This document shows positions 21,586-31,000 of a stretch of DNA of 64,000 nt, one piece after another. Location of the stretch: positions 9,269 through 73,268 of the forward strand of contig JBIICO010000002.1 in NCBI GenBank assembly GCA_044238855.1. Direction: 5' to 3'. The position numbers and the translations under genes are program-made. A model generated the notes under the pieces. The model saw only the letters and a program-made list of their open reading frames with translations. It did not search any database and was not told where the DNA came from. Position 1 is the first letter of the stretch. Each line of letters starts with the position of its first letter. Source of the stretch: Caulobacter sp. (GTDB taxonomy: Bacteria > Pseudomonadota > Alphaproteobacteria > Caulobacterales > Caulobacteraceae).

Positions 21586-22206
21586 TCAGCCGGCCATCGC
21601 CGACGCCATCCCCACCCGCCGGTAGATCAGCGCCTCGGCGACATGGAGGCGTTTGACGCTGTCCGCGCCGTCGAGGTCGGCGATGGTTCGGGCCAGGCGC
21701 AGGGCCCGGGTCCAGCCTCTGGCCGTCAGATGGCCCGCCTCCGCGGCGCGGCTCATCAGGGCGCGGGCCGCCTCGTCCAGGCTCGCCGCCTTCTCCAGGA
21801 AGTCGCCGTCGGCGCGGGCGTTGATGGCCGGCGCGCCCTCGCCCCAGGCCAGCGCCCGTTCAGTCTGGGCCGCGCGGGCGGCCGCCACGCGGGCGGCGAC
21901 CTCGGCCGACCCTTCCGAGGGCGGGGGCAGGGCCAGGTCGGCGGCGCTGACTGGCGGCACGTCGATCTGCAGGTCGATGCGGTCGATCAGCGGCCCCGAG
22001 ACGCGGCCCTGATAGTCGCGCTGGCAGCGCGGAGCCTTGCCGCAGTAGCCTTTCCCCGGCCCGCCATGGCCGCAGCGGCAGGGATTCTGCGCCGCGACGA
22101 GCTGCACGCGCGCGGGGTAGCGGATGTGCGCGTTGGCGCGGGCGACCATCACCTCGCCGGTCTCCAGCGGCGCGCGGAGGCTGTCCAGGGCCTGGGCGCT
22201 GAACTC
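21586..22206 (-). pseudogene. comM: comM/yifB (Mg-chelatase-like AAA+ ATPase), 3' fragment, cut by a transposon
   Basis: Translation PEFSAQALDSLRAPLETGEVMVARANAHIRYPARVQLVAAQNPCRCG... is the ComM C-terminal half. Upstream of the junction the ORF reads out of the element's inverted repeat. Confidence 0.9.
22199..22206. repeat. target-site duplication, left copy (CTGAACTC)
   Basis: Identical 8-mer at 30084..30091, directly abutting the inverted repeats. Confidence 0.9.
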
Positions 22207-22233
22207 CGGAATCCGGTAGCAAACACACCCAAA
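22207..22233. repeat. terminal inverted repeat, left (CGGAATCCGGTAGCAAACACACCCAAA)
   Basis: Perfect 27/27 reverse complement of 30057..30083. Confidence 0.92.
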
Positions 22234-22269
22234 CACGCGAAGTTAAGATGATCGCCGCACGGTTGTGCG

Positions 22270-22812
22270 ATGGGTGGGCAGCGTCAGACCAAATTCCTTA
22301 CGGATGAATACAGGCGCGTCATGGGCGATCTGGAGGCCGTGGCGCATCGCGTGGATGAACTTAGGCCGGCCGCCGACGAGTTTCGGCGGCGACAACAAGA
22401 AGCGATCGTCTTGCGCCAGAAGCTCGAAGCAATGGCGATCACTCTTCGCGTGCTTGATGGCTCTTGGGTGGAACCAGAAGTTCCGATGAAGCGAAGGAAG
22501 CGGCCTTGGGGCGATCTTCCTACGGGCGCGTTTATTCGCACCGCTTTGAGGGTGCTTGGCACCTCAACAGAACCATTAAGCGCGGCTGAGATCGCCGAAA
22601 TTGTAGCGCCGCGCGTCATGCCGGGCCGGGAGTTTTCATCCCATGAGATGGCTCATATCGCTACCGTGATCAGATGCTCTCTTCGAAGACGAAGAAGCCT
22701 CATCCGCGTGACCGGCACCCATCCTCTGCGGTTCGCGCTAAACCTCTCTAGCCGGGGCGCCCCGCATAGTCCCAATAGTTCGTCCACCGGCGCGACTGCG
22801 GGCTGTGACTGA
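22270..22812 (+). CDS. hypothetical protein, end-proximal and inward-facing (paralog of 29553..30014)
   Basis: 180-aa ORF. Coiled N-terminal half, then ...IRTALRVLGTSTEPLSAAEIAEIV..., which aligns with the right-end ORF (...VFKALREAKEPLTSRDIALRL...). The last ~22 codons overlap the transposase 3' end. Confidence 0.6.
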   Translation: MGGQRQTKFLTDEYRRVMGDLEAVAHRVDELRPAADEFRRRQQEAIVLRQKLEAMAITLRVLDGSWVEPEVPMKRRKRPWGDLPTGAFIRTALRVLGTSTEPLSAAEIAEIVAPRVMPGREFSSHEMAHIATVIRCSLRRRRSLIRVTGTHPLRFALNLSSRGAPHSPNSSSTGATAGCD

Positions 22813-23701
22813 CGGCGTCCAAGAGCTTGGTGAACAGTTCGCCGTTGCCGATCCGGTTATGAGTCTCTCGCCACGCCATCTCGACCGCGTAGGGTGACAG
22901 GTGCTTTCCTGCCAGACGATGGTGGATACCGATCGCGGACCGACGCATTCGCGAGAAGAAGCTCTCAGCTTGGTTGGTGTTCGCTTCAGCGGTGGCGTAG
23001 CCGAACTTCGAGTGATTGATCCGCGACATTTCGTGCGTCGCTTCTAGATCATTCCAGGCGCTGGCCTCATCCGCGAAAACGTGGGCCGTCTTGCTAATGT
23101 TGGCGAGAAGCGTGTTGTAGGCATCTACTTCCCTCGGCACGACAAACGCTCGGGTCTCGCCCTTGCGCTGCTTCATAACCACGACGGTCCGCCGATCTTT
23201 TTCCACCACCATCGAGTGGCGTCGTTTCGCCACCTCGTTCTTCTTCCGGCGCTTGCCGCCAAACCCGGCGCCGTCGATCTCGACTTCCCCGGTGAGCAGA
23301 TGGGCGCGCACCACAAAGGACAAAGATTCTCGCATTTTGTGCTGTTGGACGAAGATCGACTTCGCTTGGACATCCAGCGTTCGGGACATCTCCAGTGCAG
23401 CCCGCCCCTTCGCTCCGTTGACGAAGTGGCCCATAGCATAGAGGTAGTCTCGGAGTTCTAGTTTGTGGTGACCGAAAGGGGTCCCAGACGTAGGCGAGAA
23501 CTGACGCCGGCAGGCGGCACACTTGAAGATTCGGACCTTCTTCACGCCGCTCTTAAGTCGGCGGTTGATAGTCATCTCGTAGATGCGGTCGCCTCCGCAG
23601 CCCTTGTGCGGGCAAGTCGGCTTGCCGCCGTTTTCCTTCCAGCGACTGGCGATGAAGAGGTCAACCGCTTCGTCTTCCGACATCCGTCGGAGCCATTTCA
23701 T
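22748..23701 (-). CDS. IS1595-family DDE transposase (N-terminal zinc ribbon + ISXO2-like domain)
   Basis: MKWLRRMSEDEAVDLFIASRWKENGGKPTCPHKGCGG...FKCAACRRQFS zinc ribbon. Catalytic-region motifs VEIDGAGFGG, VFADEASAWNDL, NTNQAESFFSRMRR. Confidence 0.85.
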   Translation of the reverse strand: MKWLRRMSEDEAVDLFIASRWKENGGKPTCPHKGCGGDRIYEMTINRRLKSGVKKVRIFKCAACRRQFSPTSGTPFGHHKLELRDYLYAMGHFVNGAKGRAALEMSRTLDVQAKSIFVQQHKMRESLSFVVRAHLLTGEVEIDGAGFGGKRRKKNEVAKRRHSMVVEKDRRTVVVMKQRKGETRAFVVPREVDAYNTLLANISKTAHVFADEASAWNDLEATHEMSRINHSKFGYATAEANTNQAESFFSRMRRSAIGIHHRLAGKHLSPYAVEMAWRETHNRIGNGELFTKLLDAVSHSPQSRRWTNYWDYAGRPG

Positions 23702-23972
23702 ATCGAGCGTGCGCGCAGCAGCGGATTCCAGGAAGTGTCCACCGACACTTCCATCTGGCCTCCTCTTCCTGCGACGCGCTGAAGGCACGCGATTGCTCCG
23801 CCGTCGCCGGATGTGGCGACGTCGGGGCTAGTGCAGGAGTTGGACCCGCGTTTCGTGACTCAAGTGGCTGATTTTGCGCCAGATGTTGGCGTTCGACCGT
23901 CCGAAACGTGACTCCTTAGCCCACCTTCTGGCGGACCGAATCCGTGTCTCAAAAAGGAACGGTCAGAAGAGG

Positions 23973-24515
23973 CTATTGCGAAGCTCGGGCCACGCCCTTG
24001 CGCTTAGGCGGCTCCTCGAAATCGAACACATAATCGCCGCCCTGCACCTTCGCTTGCGCTTTCTTGAAGGCCCACTCGGGTGAAGGAGGAGAAGACATCC
24101 TGACGGCATCCATCCGATCCATCAGTGCCTCGAACTCCGCCTGGAATTCTTCGTATGGCGCCTGTGAGCGGATTTCGGCCGCTTGGCGGAAGCGGTCCCG
24201 AAGGTTGGTGAACTCTCCGGCAGATCGGGCTATCTCGACCACCTTCATGTCCATGTTCAGCGACACATAGATCGCTGGGAAGAACCCCGCCAACATGCCG
24301 CAGAATGCGCCGGCGAGCTTTCCGGCGTCTGAGCCAAATTCGAGAAGAATCTGTGAGCTAGCGAGGCCGCCCAGGATCACCGGCGCTATTAGGAACATGG
24401 CCCGCCAAGTGGTCGCGTGCTTCTGCCAGATGTAGAGCGCCGCGCTCGTATAGGTGCAGGACTCGGCTTGCCGTTTGCACTCTGCGATGAGGGGTTCGGT
24501 TCGAGGGTCGGTCAT
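23973..24515 (-). CDS. SLATT-like two-TM effector protein
   Basis: N-terminal helix with Cys (CKRQAESC), then two adjacent TM helices (WRAMFLIAPVILGGLASSQILL; LAGAFCGMLAGFFPAIYVSL) and a helical tail. The ATG overlaps the SMODS stop (ATGA). Confidence 0.7.
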   Translation of the reverse strand: MTDPRTEPLIAECKRQAESCTYTSAALYIWQKHATTWRAMFLIAPVILGGLASSQILLEFGSDAGKLAGAFCGMLAGFFPAIYVSLNMDMKVVEIARSAGEFTNLRDRFRQAAEIRSQAPYEEFQAEFEALMDRMDAVRMSSPPSPEWAFKKAQAKVQGGDYVFDFEEPPKRKGVARASQ

Positions 24516-25390
24516 GGGTACTTCGGGATGTAGGTTCCGAATATCTTCTGCCATTCGTCGCCGGCGCTACTCCAGTGCGAATTGGACTCGTAAGAGCAGG
24601 CCTTCTTAGCGCGTTCTAGAGCCGATTTTGCCTTCGATTCCCAGCCGCTCCCAACGCTCATGCCCTCACTGGTGCCAGGGGCGAAGACCCACCCACCCAC
24701 GTTGTTCACCATGTACTGGAGGAAGTCGCGCACCATCCAGTCGTAGTAAAGTTTGCCTTTCCCTCGGTGCTCCCAGCCGTTCAAGAACGTGACGGCCATA
24801 AGCTCGATGTGGAATGACTTTATTGGCACCGAACATTCGCTTTGCCAGCATTTCATCATGCGGACTAATTCGCGCGTGTTGCCCGACGTATTGGTGTTCG
24901 AAGTAGATATGTTTGTCGCCTCTGCGGCGTAATCCGCCTTCTTGTAGTGTCCGCCGCTGTCGGTCATGCAAACCCAATGACCGCCCCCTTCCAAGGCGAA
25001 CGCGGGAATCACCTCGACGTTGAAGGCGGTGAACGGCACAACGACGACCGGTCCATCCCCTCGGATCGCAGTGTTGGGGTAGGCGGCTGAAAGAACATTC
25101 CTGACCTCCTGAAGGAGTTGGGACTGCTTGTTGCCGAGGCGTAGCTGGTACCGATCGTACACAGCCCTTGGGAGCGAAAAGAGGATGTCGACATCCCGAG
25201 GCGGCCGTATCCGGGTCAGCTTCGCCCAAGACCCCACGAAGACGGAGTTCGCCGTCCTGTTGGTTGACGACCAGTAGTTCCAGTTCAGCGTGCCGACGAC
25301 GCTTTCACGCCTTTCGCCGCCTTTTGTAACTTGGTCAGGCGTCAAGGCGATGTTTTCCAGGAATGTTTCGAAGCGCGCCTTCACGCTCAT
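24512..25390 (-). CDS. SMODS-type nucleotidyltransferase (CD-NTase-like second-messenger synthase)
   Basis: N-terminal FETFLENIALT, the pol-beta NTase signature GSWAKLTRIRPPRDVDILF (GS...DxD) and a third acidic residue in NVEVIPAF. About 292 aa. Confidence 0.75.
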   Translation of the reverse strand: MSVKARFETFLENIALTPDQVTKGGERRESVVGTLNWNYWSSTNRTANSVFVGSWAKLTRIRPPRDVDILFSLPRAVYDRYQLRLGNKQSQLLQEVRNVLSAAYPNTAIRGDGPVVVVPFTAFNVEVIPAFALEGGGHWVCMTDSGGHYKKADYAAEATNISTSNTNTSGNTRELVRMMKCWQSECSVPIKSFHIELMAVTFLNGWEHRGKGKLYYDWMVRDFLQYMVNNVGGWVFAPGTSEGMSVGSGWESKAKSALERAKKACSYESNSHWSSAGDEWQKIFGTYIPKYP

Positions 25391-25529
25391 GGTGTTTTCT
25401 CGCTGCGAGGGAAGAAAGCGAATCGGCATCACTCGATTTTACCTCAACACAACCTACCGGCGCGAATCCGCACAGACTCGCACAGATAGAAGGGGCTGCT
25501 GGTGACGTGATCGTCGCCAGGAGGACCGT

Positions 25530-26267
25530 CTAGGAATCAGTCGAACCCGGCACGTACAATTTGGCGAGCTTGGCGACCTCCTCGACGCTGATAACGGCGC
25601 CTGGGTCTCGCTGAGAAAACATCGTGTCGAAGAGCGCGTGGATCACAGGCTCGATATCCGGGATCGGCGTGTCGAGATTACGCGCGAACGCGGTTCTGAT
25701 CCGCTGACCCGGCTCCACCTGCCGCACTAACATTTGAAACTCATGCCGGGGCGGCAACACGGTATCGCTGTAGTCGGAAGGCAGCGTCTCCGCCTCCCCA
25801 GGGAACGCTGGCCTGAGACGATGCGACCGGTCTCGGTTCTCAGCGAACCATGCCGCATCATCGGATTTCCATAGTGAAGGCAGCACGTTGACAGAGGACC
25901 GGGCCGTGGAAATGCCTGCTCGGTTTGACGCATCATCGGCCACGGCGTCGACGTTGGCGAAGAAGGTTTGGAACGCATCGACGGCGCCTTCGATATCTTC
26001 TGGCTTCTTCCGCTTCTTGCTTACCGGCTGGGCAATTCCCGACAGAACGTCGTACGTGCGGCCCACGTAGAGGCCTTGTCCGACGCCGTACTCCAGCCTT
26101 GGAAGGCAGCACTCACCAAGGACGACGGCCGTCCCTGCGGTGCTCCGTCCGTAGAAAGTCTTCTCGTTGTGCTGGAAAGGCCGGCGACAGATGTTGCAGT
26201 TGTCGCCATCCGACTGGATGACCTTTTTGATCTCGCGATCAATCCGACGACGCTCCGCTCGGTTCAT
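25530..26267 (-). CDS. hypothetical Cys-rich protein
   Basis: ATG at 26267 is preceded by GGAGG 8 nt upstream. MNRAERRRIDREIKK...CNICRRPF...GECCLPRL. No family recognised. Confidence 0.6.
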   Translation of the reverse strand: MNRAERRRIDREIKKVIQSDGDNCNICRRPFQHNEKTFYGRSTAGTAVVLGECCLPRLEYGVGQGLYVGRTYDVLSGIAQPVSKKRKKPEDIEGAVDAFQTFFANVDAVADDASNRAGISTARSSVNVLPSLWKSDDAAWFAENRDRSHRLRPAFPGEAETLPSDYSDTVLPPRHEFQMLVRQVEPGQRIRTAFARNLDTPIPDIEPVIHALFDTMFSQRDPGAVISVEEVAKLAKLYVPGSTDS

Positions 26268-26392
26268 GAAGCAAGCCTCCGAAGAATGGGCGACCCAGCT
26301 AGAGGCCGGGTCGCCCACATGTTATTCCGGTTGAGCGTAAGACCCGACTCTTCCCCGATGCGCTGTTTTTCAACGCTACAAGGAAAAAAGCC

Positions 26393-26524
26393 ATGTCTTA
26401 CACCTTCCAGATCGGACGAGATGCCGAGACGGGGGAATTTATTCCCCTCTCTGAAGCCCGTCGTCGCAAGACGACGGCGGTAGTCGAAACGATCAAGGTG
26501 ACGAAGCCGAAGCGCAAGCGCTAA
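26393..26524 (+). CDS. small basic protein (43 aa), paralog of 29092..29217
   Basis: MSYTFQIGRDAETGEFIPLSEARRRKTTAVVETIKVTKPKRKR. Too short for the ORF track. About half its residues are identical to the second copy. A hairpin follows it. Confidence 0.5.
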   Translation: MSYTFQIGRDAETGEFIPLSEARRRKTTAVVETIKVTKPKRKR

Positions 26525-26610
26525 GGCGGGACGCACGGCGGCAGCCAGCTACACCTGGCTGTCGCCACTTGACTCCCCAGAGTGGCAGATTTCCCTTAAA
26601 AGTCAAGAAA

Positions 26611-26829
26611 TTAGGTGAATTCCGGTCGCTGTAGAAGCGCCAGTGGATCAACTCCTAGAACCTGGGCGAACCGTTCCACGACATCCAGGGTCGGGTTTCG
26701 AGTGCCCCGCTCGATCTGACCGACATAGGTGACGGCAAGCTCGACCTCGTCGGCCAACGCCTCTTGGCTCAGCCCGCGTTCCTTACGCAGCCGGCGGACA
26801 TTGGTCCCGAAAATCTGCCCCAATCGCAT
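26611..26829 (-). CDS. XRE-family helix-turn-helix transcriptional regulator
   Basis: 72 aa. ...RRLRKERGLSQEALADEVELAVTYVGQIERGTRNPTLDVVERFAQVLGV is a classic Cro/C1-type HTH. Confidence 0.88.
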   Translation of the reverse strand: MRLGQIFGTNVRRLRKERGLSQEALADEVELAVTYVGQIERGTRNPTLDVVERFAQVLGVDPLALLQRPEFT

Positions 26830-26863
26830 CAGGGCAGGCGCAACGAATCCTCAACTCACAGCC

Positions 26864-26879
26864 AGTCACTATAGTGACT
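26864..26879. promoter_or_regulatory. perfect 16-bp palindrome AGTCACTATAGTGACT (candidate XRE operator)
   Basis: Centred in the 75-bp divergent intergenic region between the XRE gene and 26905..27441. Contains a TATAGT -10-like core. Confidence 0.55.
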
Positions 26880-26904
26880 ATTCAATCTGGGGTGAGGGTT
26901 TGGG

Positions 26905-27441
26905 ATGCCAACGGCGAGACGAGGCGATTGGGCCGGGAAAATCCTAGGCTTCTTCTTCGGCGCCACGATCCTCGTGGTCGTCTCAATCTTCGTCATCGAT
27001 CGTGCGACCGCGATCCTGACACCGAAGCAGTACGCAGCCTCAAAGGCGATGGAGAATGCGGAGGCGGCAGCAGCCAGCGCGCAACAGGCCGAGGTGCAGC
27101 GGAAGGCGGACGCCGCGCAAGCCAAGCGAGACGAAGCCCAACGGAAAGAGGAACTCGTCTTCAACCTCGCATCGGACGCGTTCTCGAACTTCAAGAGTTC
27201 GCTGCGTGATCCGAGAGGGGCGCAGTTCCGGGATGTCTGGGCGGTAAGGGGTCAGCTAAACGGCACGGAGATCATCGCGGCCTGCGGCGTGGTCAACGCG
27301 CAGAACGCCTTCGGTGGCTATACCGGTGAGACGCCCTTCATGGCCGCTGGCAGCTTCATCTACACGCCTGACCATCCGAGTTTCGAGGCCCGGTTTCAGA
27401 CCATTTGTCTGGACGGCAAGAAAGTCATGAAGTTGAAGTAG
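26905..27441 (+). CDS. membrane-anchored hypothetical protein
   Basis: N-terminal TM helix (ILGFFFGATILVVVSIFVI), an Ala/Gln/Lys-rich coiled linker, and a C-terminal domain with LRDPRGAQFRDV...ACGVVNAQNAFGGYTG. Confidence 0.65.
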   Translation: MPTARRGDWAGKILGFFFGATILVVVSIFVIDRATAILTPKQYAASKAMENAEAAAASAQQAEVQRKADAAQAKRDEAQRKEELVFNLASDAFSNFKSSLRDPRGAQFRDVWAVRGQLNGTEIIAACGVVNAQNAFGGYTGETPFMAAGSFIYTPDHPSFEARFQTICLDGKKVMKLK

Positions 27442-27475
27442 CGCGTCGAAGGCCTTCCGTTTGAGCGCAGTCGCG

Positions 27476-28864
27476 ATGAAACCAGATCGGCTCGCAGACG
27501 ATAAGGCGGCGGCGCAATACCTGCGCATGTCCACGACAAACCAGCGCTACTCAATTGCGAACCAAGCACGCGCCATCGCTGCCTACGCGGAAGAGCACGG
27601 CTATCGGATCGTCCGCACGTACAAAGACGCGGGAAAGAGCGGCCTAACTCTGAAAGGGCGAGATGGCCTAAAGGCGCTTATCCAAGACGTCGTGAGCGGG
27701 AAGGCCCCGTACTCCTCGATCCTCGTGCTCGACGTCAGTCGGTGGGGGCGCTTTCAGGACCCCGATCAGGCCGCGCACTATGAATTCCTATGCCGTGAGG
27801 CCGGCGTTCGAGTCAGGTATTGCGCTGAACCGTTCGACGATTCGAACGCACCCATGACGTCGATCATCAAACACATGAAGAGGGTCATGGCTGGAGAGTA
27901 CAGCCGTGAACTTTCGGAGAAAGTGGGGGCGGGCCGTCGACGTATCGCCAGGATGGGGTTCGTCGCTGGTGGGACCGCCTGCTACGGCTTTCGCCGCCTG
28001 CTCATCGACCAGGATGGAAAGCCTCGCTTCATGCTCGATACCGGACAACGCAAGGCATTGAGTTCGGACAGGGTGATCTTTGTCCACGGGCCACCCGAGG
28101 AGATCGCTGTAATTCGCCGAATCTTCCGGATGTACATCACCGATCGATTGCGGATGACCGCCATATCGCGCCGCCTCAATGACGGCGGAATCCCCTCAAG
28201 TTTGGGACATGCCTGGACCGCCGCGAGGGTGAAAACCGTCCTCACAAGCGAACTATGCATCGGCAACTACGTGTTCAACCGAACGGCTATGCGCTTGAAG
28301 GGGAAGCGCAAGACGCTGCCCGAACGAGATTGGATACGGGTCAAGATGATGGACCCGATCATCTCACGCCATCAGTTCAACGCGACCGCGAAGCTTCTCA
28401 AGCTGGGGCAGGTCGGAAAGGTGCTTCGGTCCAACGCCGAGCTTCTCGATCTCCTCCGGCGGCTACTGAAAGAGAAGGGAAGGCTATCCGCCGGAATCCT
28501 GTCGGCCTGCCCTTACACACCGTCGGCAGGCGGCTATCGTGAGCGGTTTGGATCACTCTCCAGGGCCTATGGGTTGATCGGCTACCAGAAGGAATGGGGC
28601 ATGTCGTTCAGGACCAAGGAGGGACGCGTAGCCTCCAATGAGGACCTTCTTGATGCGATGAAACGCCTGTGGAGCCGGCGCGGCTATCTTTCGACAGCGG
28701 TCATTCGCGATGACCCCGACCTTCCAGGGATTAGCTGTATTCAGAAGCGTTTCGGGTCGCTTCGTGATGTCTACGCCCTAATCGGACACCCCGTCTCGCA
28801 CAGCGAAATCATCACGGCGACACATGCCCGGAACCGAGCCATCCGTGCGGCGGCTGCCCGATAA
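27476..28864 (+). CDS. large serine recombinase
   Basis: Resolvase catalytic domain (AAQYLRMSTTNQRYSIANQ..., catalytic Ser), a recombinase domain, and a tandem C-terminal ~50-aa repeat ending RFGSL..Y.LIG. ATG 27476 (TTG 27461 is possible). Confidence 0.88.
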   Translation: MKPDRLADDKAAAQYLRMSTTNQRYSIANQARAIAAYAEEHGYRIVRTYKDAGKSGLTLKGRDGLKALIQDVVSGKAPYSSILVLDVSRWGRFQDPDQAAHYEFLCREAGVRVRYCAEPFDDSNAPMTSIIKHMKRVMAGEYSRELSEKVGAGRRRIARMGFVAGGTACYGFRRLLIDQDGKPRFMLDTGQRKALSSDRVIFVHGPPEEIAVIRRIFRMYITDRLRMTAISRRLNDGGIPSSLGHAWTAARVKTVLTSELCIGNYVFNRTAMRLKGKRKTLPERDWIRVKMMDPIISRHQFNATAKLLKLGQVGKVLRSNAELLDLLRRLLKEKGRLSAGILSACPYTPSAGGYRERFGSLSRAYGLIGYQKEWGMSFRTKEGRVASNEDLLDAMKRLWSRRGYLSTAVIRDDPDLPGISCIQKRFGSLRDVYALIGHPVSHSEIITATHARNRAIRAAAAR

Positions 28865-29091
28865 GCGCCTGGGCCACCGACGCCGTCGTACTGCCGGTCG
28901 TCACCACTCAGCCATCGCAAAGGAAGCAATCGACAACATGGTTCGGGAACGGGTTGCAGCCGTCGCCGCCCGCCCGGCGTGAAACGCCTCGGGCCGAATG
29001 TCGTTACTTTGCGGATTCACAGGAAGAATCGACTGCGCTACTGAAAGGGCGGCGCCCCGGCTGCACACCAAAGACGCCGCCCCCGTGACCA

Positions 29092-29217
29092 CTAGCTCTT
29101 ACGCTTTGTGGGCACCTTCACAGTCTGGACGTAAGCCGTCGCCTTGCGGCGGTTAGCTTCCGCAACCGGAATGATCTTCCCGGTCTTGGCGTCCTTCCCG
29201 ATCTGACGGGTAGCCAT
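29092..29217 (-). CDS. small basic protein (41 aa), paralog of 26393..26524
   Basis: MATRQIGKDAKTGKIIPVAEANRRKATAYVQTVKVPTKRKS. GGAGG lies about 10 nt upstream, and a GC hairpin (29047..29082) followed by a T-run lies downstream. Confidence 0.6.
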   Translation of the reverse strand: MATRQIGKDAKTGKIIPVAEANRRKATAYVQTVKVPTKRKS

Positions 29218-29379
29218 TTGCACATCACCTCCAATCCGGGGCCGTTGCCCCTCGTCACAGGCTCAGACCTGTGGATTGAGTGATCGCGTCCAGCGACTCG
29301 CCAGACGCGTCTTTTAGCGACCTTCGTCGGAAAAGTTGAGTCGGAGCAAAACCTTGGTCCTCATCGACCTTTGGTGCAC

Positions 29380-29556
29380 CTACCCCACGAGATTGATTAG
29401 GCGCCGAGCAACTTCGCCCCGCTCGATGCCCCGGACAACGACCTGACCGTCGCGAATACCGACGTAGCCCTCCCCACCCGCGTAGGCCGGTGCGATCAGA
29501 TAAGTCCGCCGGCCGCGCGTGAAGCGGATCGGTTCCGGGAGTCGGGGCCGGATCAT
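29380..29556 (-). CDS. hypothetical 58-aa protein
   Basis: The ATG overlaps the stop of 29553..30014 (ATGA). MIRPRLPEPIRFTRGRRTYLIAPAYAGGEGYVGIRDGQVVVRG... No family recognised. Confidence 0.4.
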   Translation of the reverse strand: MIRPRLPEPIRFTRGRRTYLIAPAYAGGEGYVGIRDGQVVVRGIERGEVARRLINLVG

Positions 29557-30014
29557 TGGTCCAACTCCCAGCCCTGAAGGTTGCCCAGGTTCTCCGCGTT
29601 TCGGACCAAACCCTTCTGCTTCTGGACCCTCAGGCAGGCGCAGATTCGCCTCACCATGATCACCGACAACTCCCTGTCATCGGGGTTCAGGCCGCGCTCC
29701 TTCATCAGCCGCAACGCGATGTCGCGGGAAGTGAGAGGCTCCTTTGCCTCCCGAAGCGCCTTGAAGACGATCCGCGTCACCTCACCCTTAAAGGCGGCGT
29801 GCCTGGGCGGCACCGGCTTCGAGCGGATCGCTTGGATGTCGATGTCGGGATTGAAGATGCGGATCGCTGCGTCGATGTGATCGAGTTCGGCGATCAGATG
29901 CCGGAGCGCGAGTTGGTTGTGCTCGATCTGGCCGGCGATCTCAGCACGCTTTCTTGTGAGGGCGTACAGGACGTTTGGCTGCTCGGTACCGGGCGGGACA
30001 ATGTCGATGTTCAT
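29553..30014 (-). CDS. hypothetical protein, end-proximal and inward-facing (paralog of 22270..22812)
   Basis: 153 aa from ATG 30014, about 70 nt inside the right inverted repeat. Same two-part architecture as the left-end ORF. Confidence 0.65.
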   Translation of the reverse strand: MNIDIVPPGTEQPNVLYALTRKRAEIAGQIEHNQLALRHLIAELDHIDAAIRIFNPDIDIQAIRSKPVPPRHAAFKGEVTRIVFKALREAKEPLTSRDIALRLMKERGLNPDDRELSVIMVRRICACLRVQKQKGLVRNAENLGNLQGWELDQ

Positions 30015-30056
30015 TCCCAAAAACGTAACGGGAACAAACGATTAGGCTAGATGCCC

Positions 30057-30083
30057 TTTGGGTGTGTTTGCTACCGGATTCCG
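30057..30083. repeat. terminal inverted repeat, right
   Basis: TTTGGGTGTGTTTGCTACCGGATTCCG is the reverse complement of 22207..22233. Confidence 0.92.
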
Positions 30084-30091
30084 CTGAACTC
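30084..30091. repeat. target-site duplication, right copy (CTGAACTC)
   Basis: Identical to 22199..22206. Confidence 0.9.
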
Positions 30092-31000
30092 GGGAAGTTC
30101 GTCCAGGAAGAGCACGCCGTTGTGCGCGAGAGAGACCTCGCCCGGCTTAACCTTCAGCCCGCCGCCGGTCAGGGCGGCCATGCTGGCCGAATGGTGCGGC
30201 GCGCGGAACGGCCGGGCGCGGGTCAGCTCGCCGCGGGCGATCAGCCCGGCCACCGAATGGACCATCGATGTTTCCAGCAGCTCCGCCGCCGACAGCGGCG
30301 GCAGGATGCCGGGCAGGCGCTGGGCCATCATCGACTTGCCCGAGCCGGGAGGACCCGAGAACAACAGGTTGTGGCCGCCGGCCGCGGCGATCTCCAGCGC
30401 CCGCTTGGCCTGCTCCTGGCCCTTCACCTCGCGCAGGTCGGGGATGCGACCGTCTTCGCGCAGCTGCCCGGGCCTGGGCTCCGACAGCAGCTGGCTGCCC
30501 CGGAAGTGGTTCACCAACCCGATCAGCGAGCGCGGCGCCAAGACCCGCGTGCCGCCGGCCCAGGCCGCCTCCGGGCCCGAGGGCTCCGGGCAGATCAGGC
30601 CCAGCTCCATCGCCCCGGCCGCCACCGCCGCCGGCAACACCCCGGCCACCGGCGCGATCGTGCCGTCCAGCGACAGCTCGCCCACCGCGGCCCAGCCGTT
30701 CAGGCCGTCCGGCGGGATCACGCCCATCGCCGCCATGATCGCCAGCGCGATCGGCAGGTCGTAATGGCTGCCCTCCTTGGGCAGGTCCGCCGGGGCCAGG
30801 TTCACGATTACCCGCTTCGCCGGCATGGACAGGCCGAGGCCCATGAAGGCCCCGCGCACCCGTTCGCGGCTCTCGCCGACCGCCTTGTCGCCGAGCCCGA
30901 CCAGGACGAAGGCGGTGTCGCCGCCCGTCAGCTGAACCTCGACGTCTACCCGCCGCGCTTCCACGCCCTGGAAGGCCACGGTCACCATCCGCGCGACCAT
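30084..31000 (-). pseudogene. comM: comM/yifB, 5' fragment
   Basis: GGAGG then ATG at 31000. MVARMVTVAFQGVEARRVDVEVQL... includes Walker A GPPGSGKSM and ends ...VLFLDELPEFS. It then reads 3 codons into the inverted repeat, to TAG at 30071. Confidence 0.9.

Follow-up and report, generated by a model that had tools for sequence, protein, structure and literature searches.

Why is comM broken into two pieces in this Caulobacter sp. contig (JBIICO010000002.1), and is the position of the break an accident? Within the window, by which we mean the whole 64-kb stretch of DNA that was analyzed, the two parts of the gene are separated by an element of 7,877 bp (22207-30083). Very probably this is an intact, recently inserted transporter insertion sequence (IS) of the IS1595 family, one of a set of related elements that prefer comM as their target and carry antiphage defense genes. 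This reading is built on the ends of the element, its target duplication, an intact transposase gene, repeated independent insertions at one site, movement between comM and the genome of a phage, and defense cargo, all of them documented at the level of sequence.

Structure of the element and its insertion in comM

According to the original prediction, comM is split by a transposon whose perfect inverted repeats are 27 bp long and which is flanked by an 8-bp target duplication. Direct reading of the sequence bears this out (Table 1), and 8 bp is the duplication length known for the IS1595 family. The 27-bp repeat is present in just two copies in the window, both at up to three and at up to seven mismatches, and with up to three mismatches it gave no match in 100 shuffles. 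A repeat search of the window found no inner inverted repeats inside the element, and domain searches returned one IS1595-type transposase, both in agreement with the prediction. When 22207-30091 is excised, the minus strand carries an uninterrupted comM open reading frame (ORF) of 1,530 nt (ATG at 31000, 509 aa plus stop), and the rejoined junction reads ...LFLDELPEFSAQALDSLRAPLE. Its product matches TIGR00368 (YifB/ComM) from end to end (model positions 5-499 of 499, 1.3e-145, 485.8 bits with a cut-off of 362.4), as would be expected if excision restores the gene. The element has a mean GC content of 59.4%, compared to 70-72% in the flanks, and is the sole low-GC island of the window. Three lines counted by hand for the original prediction (48.3%, 50.0% and 76.7%) have the right values, but they are not representative of the element average. 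Neither Rfam families nor a sigma-70-like promoter were found in the element. The perfect repeats, the intact transposase gene and the undamaged comM halves point to a recent insertion of this copy.

A family of related elements

Relatives were retrieved by protein look-ups and repeat scans, and they lie mostly on short metagenomic contigs; we refer to these loci by numbers with the prefix L. Judged by shared ends and gene order, the element belongs to a coherent family, mainly from metagenomes and genomes of Caulobacterales. The transposases of the relatives are 36-80% identical to that of the window, and the family repeat has the consensus CGGAATyCkGTAGCAAACACACC, with the tip CGGAATC in the window and CGGAATT, CGGTATT or CGGTCTT in relatives. 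In every fully sequenced relative the repeat pair encloses a whole unit with one transposase. These units measure 5.3-8.4 kb (L003, 6,035 bp; L004, 5,337 bp; L005, 5,925 bp; L006, 8,408 bp; L007, 6,262 bp; L023, 6,762 bp; L029, 7,200 bp; L030, 6,829 bp), and 8-bp duplications are also seen at L003, L004, L005, L007, L023, L029 and L030. The repeat pairs bound units of 5-8 kb and not an IS of about 1 kb, and the relatives with a split comM all show the repeat together with the duplication. The backbone runs from one inverted repeat through a winged-helix gene (o155), the small gene o58, variable cargo, the transposase and a convergent o180-like gene to the other inverted repeat, and an XRE gene is usual.

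A simple relative of 1.7 kb is found on plasmid pTT6-1 of Skermanella sp. TT6 (L002, 9851-11549). It resembles the window element in its transposase (43% identity), in a convergent winged-helix gene (32% to o155) and in its repeat tip CGGTCTTATGTAGC. On the other hand, it has no cargo, no second winged-helix gene and no clear duplication, and it lies outside comM. The same pairing of transposase and winged-helix gene is found in six plasmid records. The winged-helix gene is therefore probably part of the basic equipment of this IS1595 subgroup.

Searching for the repeat elsewhere, a check that had been proposed with the original prediction, recovered the family repeat in relatives. The repeat scan of genomes gave two Phenylobacterium contigs and single hits in a Gemmatimonadales and a Geobacter metagenome-assembled genome (MAG), the metagenome scan with the repeat re-found the L003 element only, and a transposase scan of species-representative genomes gave no matches. 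In the Gemmatimonadales and Geobacter hits (L009, 4644-4670, and L010, 1007-1033) the repeat-like sequence CGGAATTCGGTAGCA... has no transposase, o155 or comM nearby. Since about one match is expected for 20 specified bases, these two are probably chance matches, with solo ends as the alternative.

The ends of several Logan contigs (L006 and L008, also L031, L034 and L035) lie 4-5 nt beyond the repeats (attc, tattc, actc). The 27-bp repeat and a palindromic 8-bp duplication together make an inverted repeat of 35 bp. An assembly k-mer of 31, as we assume here, is shorter than this and would break the assembly graph. If that assumption holds, such elements may be cut out of short-read assemblies systematically.

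Insertion at a fixed position in comM

The original prediction treated the insertion into comM as incidental, and here the comparison leads to a different view: comM is the preferred target of the family. Nine of the 12 family insertions occupy the comM site, in at least eight host backgrounds whose ComM proteins are 69-81% identical to that of the window. Each comM duplication begins right after ...GAC GAA CTN CCN (Asp-Glu-Leu-Pro), 6 nt past the Walker B Asp-Glu codons of LFLDE. In comM sense, the duplicated 8-mers are GAGTTCAG in the window, GAATTCGG in L003/L013 and GAGTACTC in L029, where the elements share the orientation of the window. The opposite orientation is seen in L005 (GAATATTC), L007 (GAATACTC), L023 (GAGTTCTC) and L032 (GAGTACTC), and two elements are inserted in tandem in L012/L011 (GAGTTCTC). 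The paired 8-mers are identical within each genome, while between genomes they differ in step with the host codons. An uninterrupted site, which had been suggested as a check, was found in L024: this locus has the same gene neighborhood, a ComM 90% identical to that of the window and one copy of GAGTTCAG.

Could such a result arise by chance? The site consensus GARTWYNS (codons Glu-Phe/Tyr-Ser) has about 35 matches in 56 kb of host DNA, or about 2,800 per genome, which makes nine insertions at one 8-bp site unlikely as a chance outcome. For the same reason we rejected the rarity of the 8-mer in a GC-rich genome as an explanation of the specificity. A resemblance of the target to the repeat tip CGGAAT was also considered and dropped, as a good match is seen in L003 and L007 only.

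The tandem insertion is found in the Phenylobacterium MAG palsa_901 (L012 4928-4989 and L011 1-33; PLEH01000173.1 / PLEH01000200.1), where two different family members lie in comM. The repeats of the two read CGGTATTAGGTAGC... and CGGAATCCTGTAGC..., and the transposases share 46% and 50% identity with that of the window. One GAGAACTC lies between the elements and another copy adjoins the comM 5′ part. The single 8-mer between the two elements implies that the second insertion reused the regenerated site exactly, and this insertion into a regenerated target suggests that the family has no target immunity.

Three of the 12 close-clade insertions lie elsewhere: L004 (CATTTTCG) and L030 (CAGTTATG), each with its own 8-bp duplication, and L027/L028 in Mesorhizobium, with the flank GAGTTTGG. 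More distant relatives (L002, L037-L039) are also outside comM. From the sites compared here, the preference for comM is thus strong and independent of orientation, but not absolute.

In L023 (16696-17633; Phenylobacterium isolate GCA_042643365.1, JBHRSG010000005.1) the comM 5′ fragment is interrupted by an in-frame stop and is scrambled over residues ~165-225, and a 71-aa resolvase fragment lies nearby. This copy looks like an older, decaying insertion.

A copy in a phage-like genome

The family member L030 (9715-16543 of an ENA ERZ6863533 contig) is flanked by sequence that is colinear across the junction with the Brevundimonas jumbo phage vB_BpoS-Kikimora (Dolichocephalovirinae), at ~69-81% identity. 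The element itself shares 94-98.6% identity with L031, the short flanks of which have the comM-type sequence cgagtactc, and 95-97% identity with the comM-borne L029 along most of its length. At this level of identity, a chromosome and a phage-like genome contain essentially the same element, with a separate 8-bp duplication around each copy, which indicates mobility between comM and the phage genome. The jumbo-phage copy suggests a route by which defense genes could pass between hosts.

The element was not found in deposited phage genomes or in a repeat scan of viral contigs; three viral contigs hold distant relatives only. L038 (9924-13995; IMG/VR uncultivated virus genome 3300046797_000014) contains a distant relative of 4.1 kb with good repeats (CGGTATTATGTAGCAAATGCACC). 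Its flanking 8-mers do not match (GAAAAACG vs. CATAAATC), as might result if copies had recombined or if neighboring DNA had been deleted.

Transposase and accessory genes

Besides the transposase gene there are nine ORFs between the repeats (Table 1). The assignment of the transposase to the IS1595 family, proposed in the original prediction, is well founded: the protein matches Pfam PF12762 (DDE_Tnp_IS1595) over model positions 2-152 of 153 (1.2e-31), NCBIfam NF033547 with 110.7 bits (cut-off 75) and the zinc-ribbon model PF12760 (4.3e-08). In an alignment of 18 sequences the zinc-ribbon residues Cys-59, Cys-64, Cys-90 and Cys-93 as well as Asp-172, Asp-240 and Glu-275 are invariant. An N-terminal zinc ribbon is found in all IS1595 groups except IS1016.

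The public call of the transposase gene (P0001, 311 aa) begins 35 codons downstream of a conserved N-terminal segment, PSxRRRxRRPDGSVGGHFLESAAARTLD. In the same alignment the homologues retain an HFLxSAAARTL N-terminus upstream of the start of that call. Because they keep the segment that the 311-aa call is missing, this call is probably truncated and the 346-aa form is the likelier one.

Table 1. Features of the element and of the split comM gene in window coordinates.
Feature	Position	Strand	Remarks
comM 3′ fragment	21586-22198	-	C-terminal ~204 codons plus stop; tblastn, translation
Left target-site duplication, 8 bp	22199-22206	.	CTGAACTC, direct reading; comM sense GAGTTCAG, codons Glu-Phe-Ser
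Terminal inverted repeat, transposase end	22207-22233	+	Perfect 27 bp, CGGAATCCGGTAGCAAACACACCCAAA; conserved in all family members
o180, second winged-helix-type accessory gene	22270-22812	+	Inward from repeat, convergent with transposase; alternative start 22321 gives 163 aa
IS1595-family DDE transposase, 346 aa	22748-23788	-	PF12762, PF12760, NF033547
Predicted CBASS effector, two-transmembrane SLATT type	23973-24554	-	PADLOC two-transmembrane effector 1.5e-61; NCBIfam SLATT_4 5.9e-15
Predicted CBASS oligonucleotide cyclase (SMODS / CD-NTase)	24512-25432	-	PADLOC cyclase 7.7e-113; Pfam SMODS 2.5e-29
262-aa ORF, upstream of cyclase, same strand	25530-26318	-	No Pfam, NCBIfam or PADLOC match
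XRE-type helix-turn-helix (HTH) regulator, 72 aa	26611-26829	-	Pfam HTH_3 7.3e-17
178-aa ORF (o178), N-terminal hydrophobic helix, divergent from HTH gene	26905-27441	+	ORF list
Large serine recombinase, 467 aa	27461-28864	+	Pfam Resolvase 6.5e-25, Recombinase 2.1e-20
o58, small conserved ORF; start overlaps o155 stop	29380-29556	-	Homologues beside o155
o155, coiled-coil helix and winged helix-turn-helix	29553-30020	-	Inward from repeat; likely start ATG 30014 gives 153 aa
Terminal inverted repeat, o155 end	30057-30083	-	Exact reverse complement of 22207-22233
Right target-site duplication, 8 bp	30084-30091	.	CTGAACTC, direct reading of sequence
comM 5′ fragment	30092-31000	-	N-terminal 303 codons through Walker B LFLDELP

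Among family members o155 is 66-87% identical and often more conserved than the transposase. Compared to the window, the respective identities of o155 and transposase are 87% vs. 59% in L007 and 72% vs. 36% in L023. An AlphaFold2 model of o155 (predicted local distance difference test score of 83) begins with a long helix that leads into a winged helix-turn-helix. Its Foldseek matches are generic Fur/MarR-type winged helices only, and no sequence relatives were found among solved structures. A profile search of 1.84 billion cluster representatives returned 3,274 at E<=1e-3 and 1,157 at E<=1e-10; despite this large family, no Pfam or NCBIfam model matched o155. Homologues of o180 are located at the same position in L003, L004, L006, L029 and L030 (32-48% identity), and the o180-equivalent gene in L004, L002 and L012 matches o155 in tblastn. 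Through these transitive links o155 and o180 appear to be paralogous, with a weak direct comparison of the two. Wherever the sequence extends past o155, o58 is found beside it (44-51% identity), except in L023 and L027/L028.

The o155 gene is also seen in another setting. In the ENA metagenome contigs L014-L017 (e.g. L014 4595-13858) a block of o155 (76%), o58, o178 (67%) and the XRE-HTH gene lies directly upstream of a Tn7-like tnsA-tnsB-tniB-tniQ set. No IS1595 transposase, family repeat or comM fragment was found beside this block within the reach of the contigs, and Pfam searches of the L014 neighbors of the Tn7-like locus gave no hint of a role for o155. Either a Tn7-like element lies inside a degraded family member, or the block is cargo shared by both kinds of element.

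Defense cargo

The original prediction listed a defense-type module and a serine recombinase among the cargo. Both are confirmed by the domain matches, and the former can be named: the cargo includes a predicted type I cyclic-oligonucleotide-based antiphage signaling system (CBASS), composed of a cyclase and one effector, whose genes are adjacent and overlap. Ancillary CBASS genes of the Cap2/Cap3 or HORMA/TRIP13 kind were not found by PADLOC in the element. In other family members the variable slot is occupied by PDC-S06 (L005, 5e-161), AbiD (L029, 2.3e-48), Shosta (L007; ShosA 6.8e-64, ShosT 1.4e-06) or a SocA/Panacea-type gene (L006). By these matches the middle slot can be exchanged and in most cases contains a single anti-phage system, and the family is a clear case of exchangeable single-system defense cargo (CBASS, AbiD, Shosta, PDC-S06).

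The XRE-HTH regulator has homologues in L003, L004, L006, L029, L030 and L014, and the 178-aa ORF in L003 (35%) and L014 (67%). A homologue of the serine recombinase is found in L006 only (46% identical), while L003, L004, L005, L007, L029 and L030 are without it. Because the recombinase is confined to the window element and L006, it would be cargo or an accessory such as a resolvase, and not the mobility enzyme.

Mechanism and alternative explanations

We infer that the element is moved by the transposase rather than by the serine recombinase, and that the site preference stems from target recognition rather than from selection. The DDE transposase, with its zinc ribbon and the residues Asp-172, Asp-240 and Glu-275, would bind the two 27-bp terminal repeats and attach the ends to target DNA whose strands are cut 8 bp apart, giving rise to the CTGAACTC duplication. 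The insertion truncates ComM after Walker B.

What recognizes comM? This could be the transpososome itself or the two winged-helix proteins. The occurrence of both orientations speaks against a polar selector such as TnsD or TnsF, and orientation independence fits either a symmetric transpososome on a near-palindromic core (CGAATATTCG, CGAGTACTCG in some hosts) or paired winged-helix proteins. Because L023 hits comM with a transposase of 36% identity while sharing o155 and the repeats, we mildly favor the winged-helix proteins or the repeats as the putative site determinant. Whichever way the element is oriented, the truncated comM 5′ part is followed immediately, on its own strand, by one of the winged-helix genes, and read-through from the comM promoter into this gene is possible. 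A more specific proposal, which we offer tentatively and which may well turn out to be wrong, is that o155 and o180 are target selectors or transpososome adaptors that steer a single-subunit DDE transposase to the Walker B DNA of comM in either orientation. If true, this would be a compact form of protein-guided, site-specific transposition unrelated to Tn7/TnsF, with a role in shuttling single defense systems between chromosomes and jumbo phages. The toolkit of the family is small (one transposase, two small predicted DNA-binding proteins and 27-bp ends), which makes precise targeting directly testable.

Selection or sampling could create an apparent bias if the element inserted at many AT-centered 8-mers and only the copies in comM persisted, being neutral or protected from transformation-mediated removal. 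Such an account would accommodate the three close-clade insertions elsewhere (L004, L030, L027), the position of the distant relatives (L002, L037-L039) outside comM and the weak core consensus. In addition, disruption of comM by AbaR islands has been reported to favor island persistence (PMC11441513). We nevertheless regard it as unlikely: the same 8 bp were used nine times against ~2,800 similar 8-mers per genome, selection for loss of comM would permit any position in a 1.5-kb gene and not one phosphodiester pair, and the tandem pair reused the regenerated 8-mer exactly. Still less probable is a single ancient insertion into comM that was inherited, or spread with its flanks by homologous recombination, and later changed by cargo swaps. 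This would agree with the fact that the comM-borne copies are all in related Caulobacterales hosts in the same gene neighborhood, and with the decay of the comM 5′ fragment in L023, by which some insertions are old. However, both orientations are present, uninterrupted sites exist in related genomes, and parallel changes in both 8-mer copies would be needed in each genome. Moreover, the divergence of element and host is out of step (L007, ComM 74.5% and o155 87%; L003, ComM 76% and o155 68%), two different elements stand in tandem at one site, and a near-identical element is found elsewhere, in a phage.

Two further explanations concern what counts as the mobile unit, and both seem very improbable to us. 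The large serine recombinase could be the mobility enzyme, with comM as its attachment site and the IS1595 gene as a passenger; large serine recombinases do integrate into specific genes, and the homologue recurs in L006. Serine integrases leave a 2-bp crossover and no 8-bp duplication beside perfect terminal inverted repeats. The 8-bp duplication beside the 27-bp repeats is hence not what a 2-bp crossover would produce, and L003, L004, L005, L007, L029 and L030 share the ends and duplications in the absence of the recombinase. That the cargo was trapped between two independent ISs, or miniature inverted-repeat transposable elements, sharing a repeat is a formal possibility only, raised with the original prediction: the window has two repeat copies and one transposase gene, the repeat pairs of relatives enclose whole units with the 8-bp duplication outside the pair, and the simple IS relative L002 has a different inner repeat sequence.

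Several points weigh against our interpretation of a comM-preferring IS1595 transporter. The 8-bp core is a weak AT-centered near-palindrome that cannot alone explain a unique site, and no extended motif common to comM and the off-site targets was found. The occurrence of o155-o58 beside a Tn7-like set without repeats means that the tie of these genes to IS1595 transposition is not exclusive. Most relatives lie on short metagenomic contigs, the sampling is biased to what the protein look-ups returned, and the comM flanks of L005 are just 22-30 nt long. The window holds one copy, public data gave the same locus only, and transposition of this copy is deduced from its sequence. Finally, membership in the ISNha5 subgroup of IS1595 transporters, taken up below, is provisional.

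Comparison with known systems

The definition of the transporter IS was originally based on members of the IS1595 family such as ISNha5 (Siguier, Gagnevin & Chandler 2009), and the ISNha5 group shares with the window element a zinc-ribbon IS1595-type transposase, inverted repeats, an 8-bp duplication and passengers that include a transcriptional regulator. The original prediction called the cargo unusually large; the cargo is indeed present, but large cargo has a precedent in IS1595 transporter ISs such as ISNha5. The ISNha5 group spans ~3.4-7.9 kb and has the repeat tip CGGnnTT. This tip fits CGGAATT, CGGTATT and CGGTCTT of the relatives and nearly fits CGGAATC of the window. In the portions of the transporter IS literature consulted, no record was found of a fixed target in comM, a pair of terminal winged-helix genes, systematic defense cargo or phage-borne copies. 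A literature search for comM with IS1595, or for comM with Walker B and transposon, likewise gave no description of an IS1595-type element at this site. The size of the cargo by itself is not new, and the added result is a comM-specific, defense-carrying IS1595 transporter family with a phage copy. Site-specific insertion is unusual for simple DDE insertion sequences.

The Tn7-like defense carriers (Benler et al. 2021, PMC8649781) resemble the window family in being site-specific and in having variable cargo rich in anti-phage systems. They differ from it in that the window family has a much smaller size of 5-8 kb, usually one system, one transposase gene and a different transposase family. 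A closer parallel in terms of the target is provided by Tn6022 (Tn7-like) and Tsy (tyrosine recombinase), for which the Walker B region of comM has been shown experimentally to be targeted through TnsF (Faure et al. 2023, PMC10293859). At the level of the region, Tn6022/AbaR and Tsy insert like the window family in or beside the part of comM that codes for Walker B, a sequence shared between species, and they too inactivate the gene and carry cargo (PMC10293859). They employ TnsF, a tyrosine-recombinase-like selector, together with TnsABC or an active tyrosine recombinase (PMC10293859), whereas the window family has a single DDE transposase, an 8-bp duplication and both orientations. No TnsF-like protein, tyrosine recombinase or Tn7 component was matched among the ORFs of the element by Pfam, NCBIfam or PADLOC. 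The comM Walker B site would consequently be the target of three unrelated transposition machineries. This agrees with the view that a universally conserved but dispensable site benefits mobile elements, which may also profit from the loss of a transformation gene.

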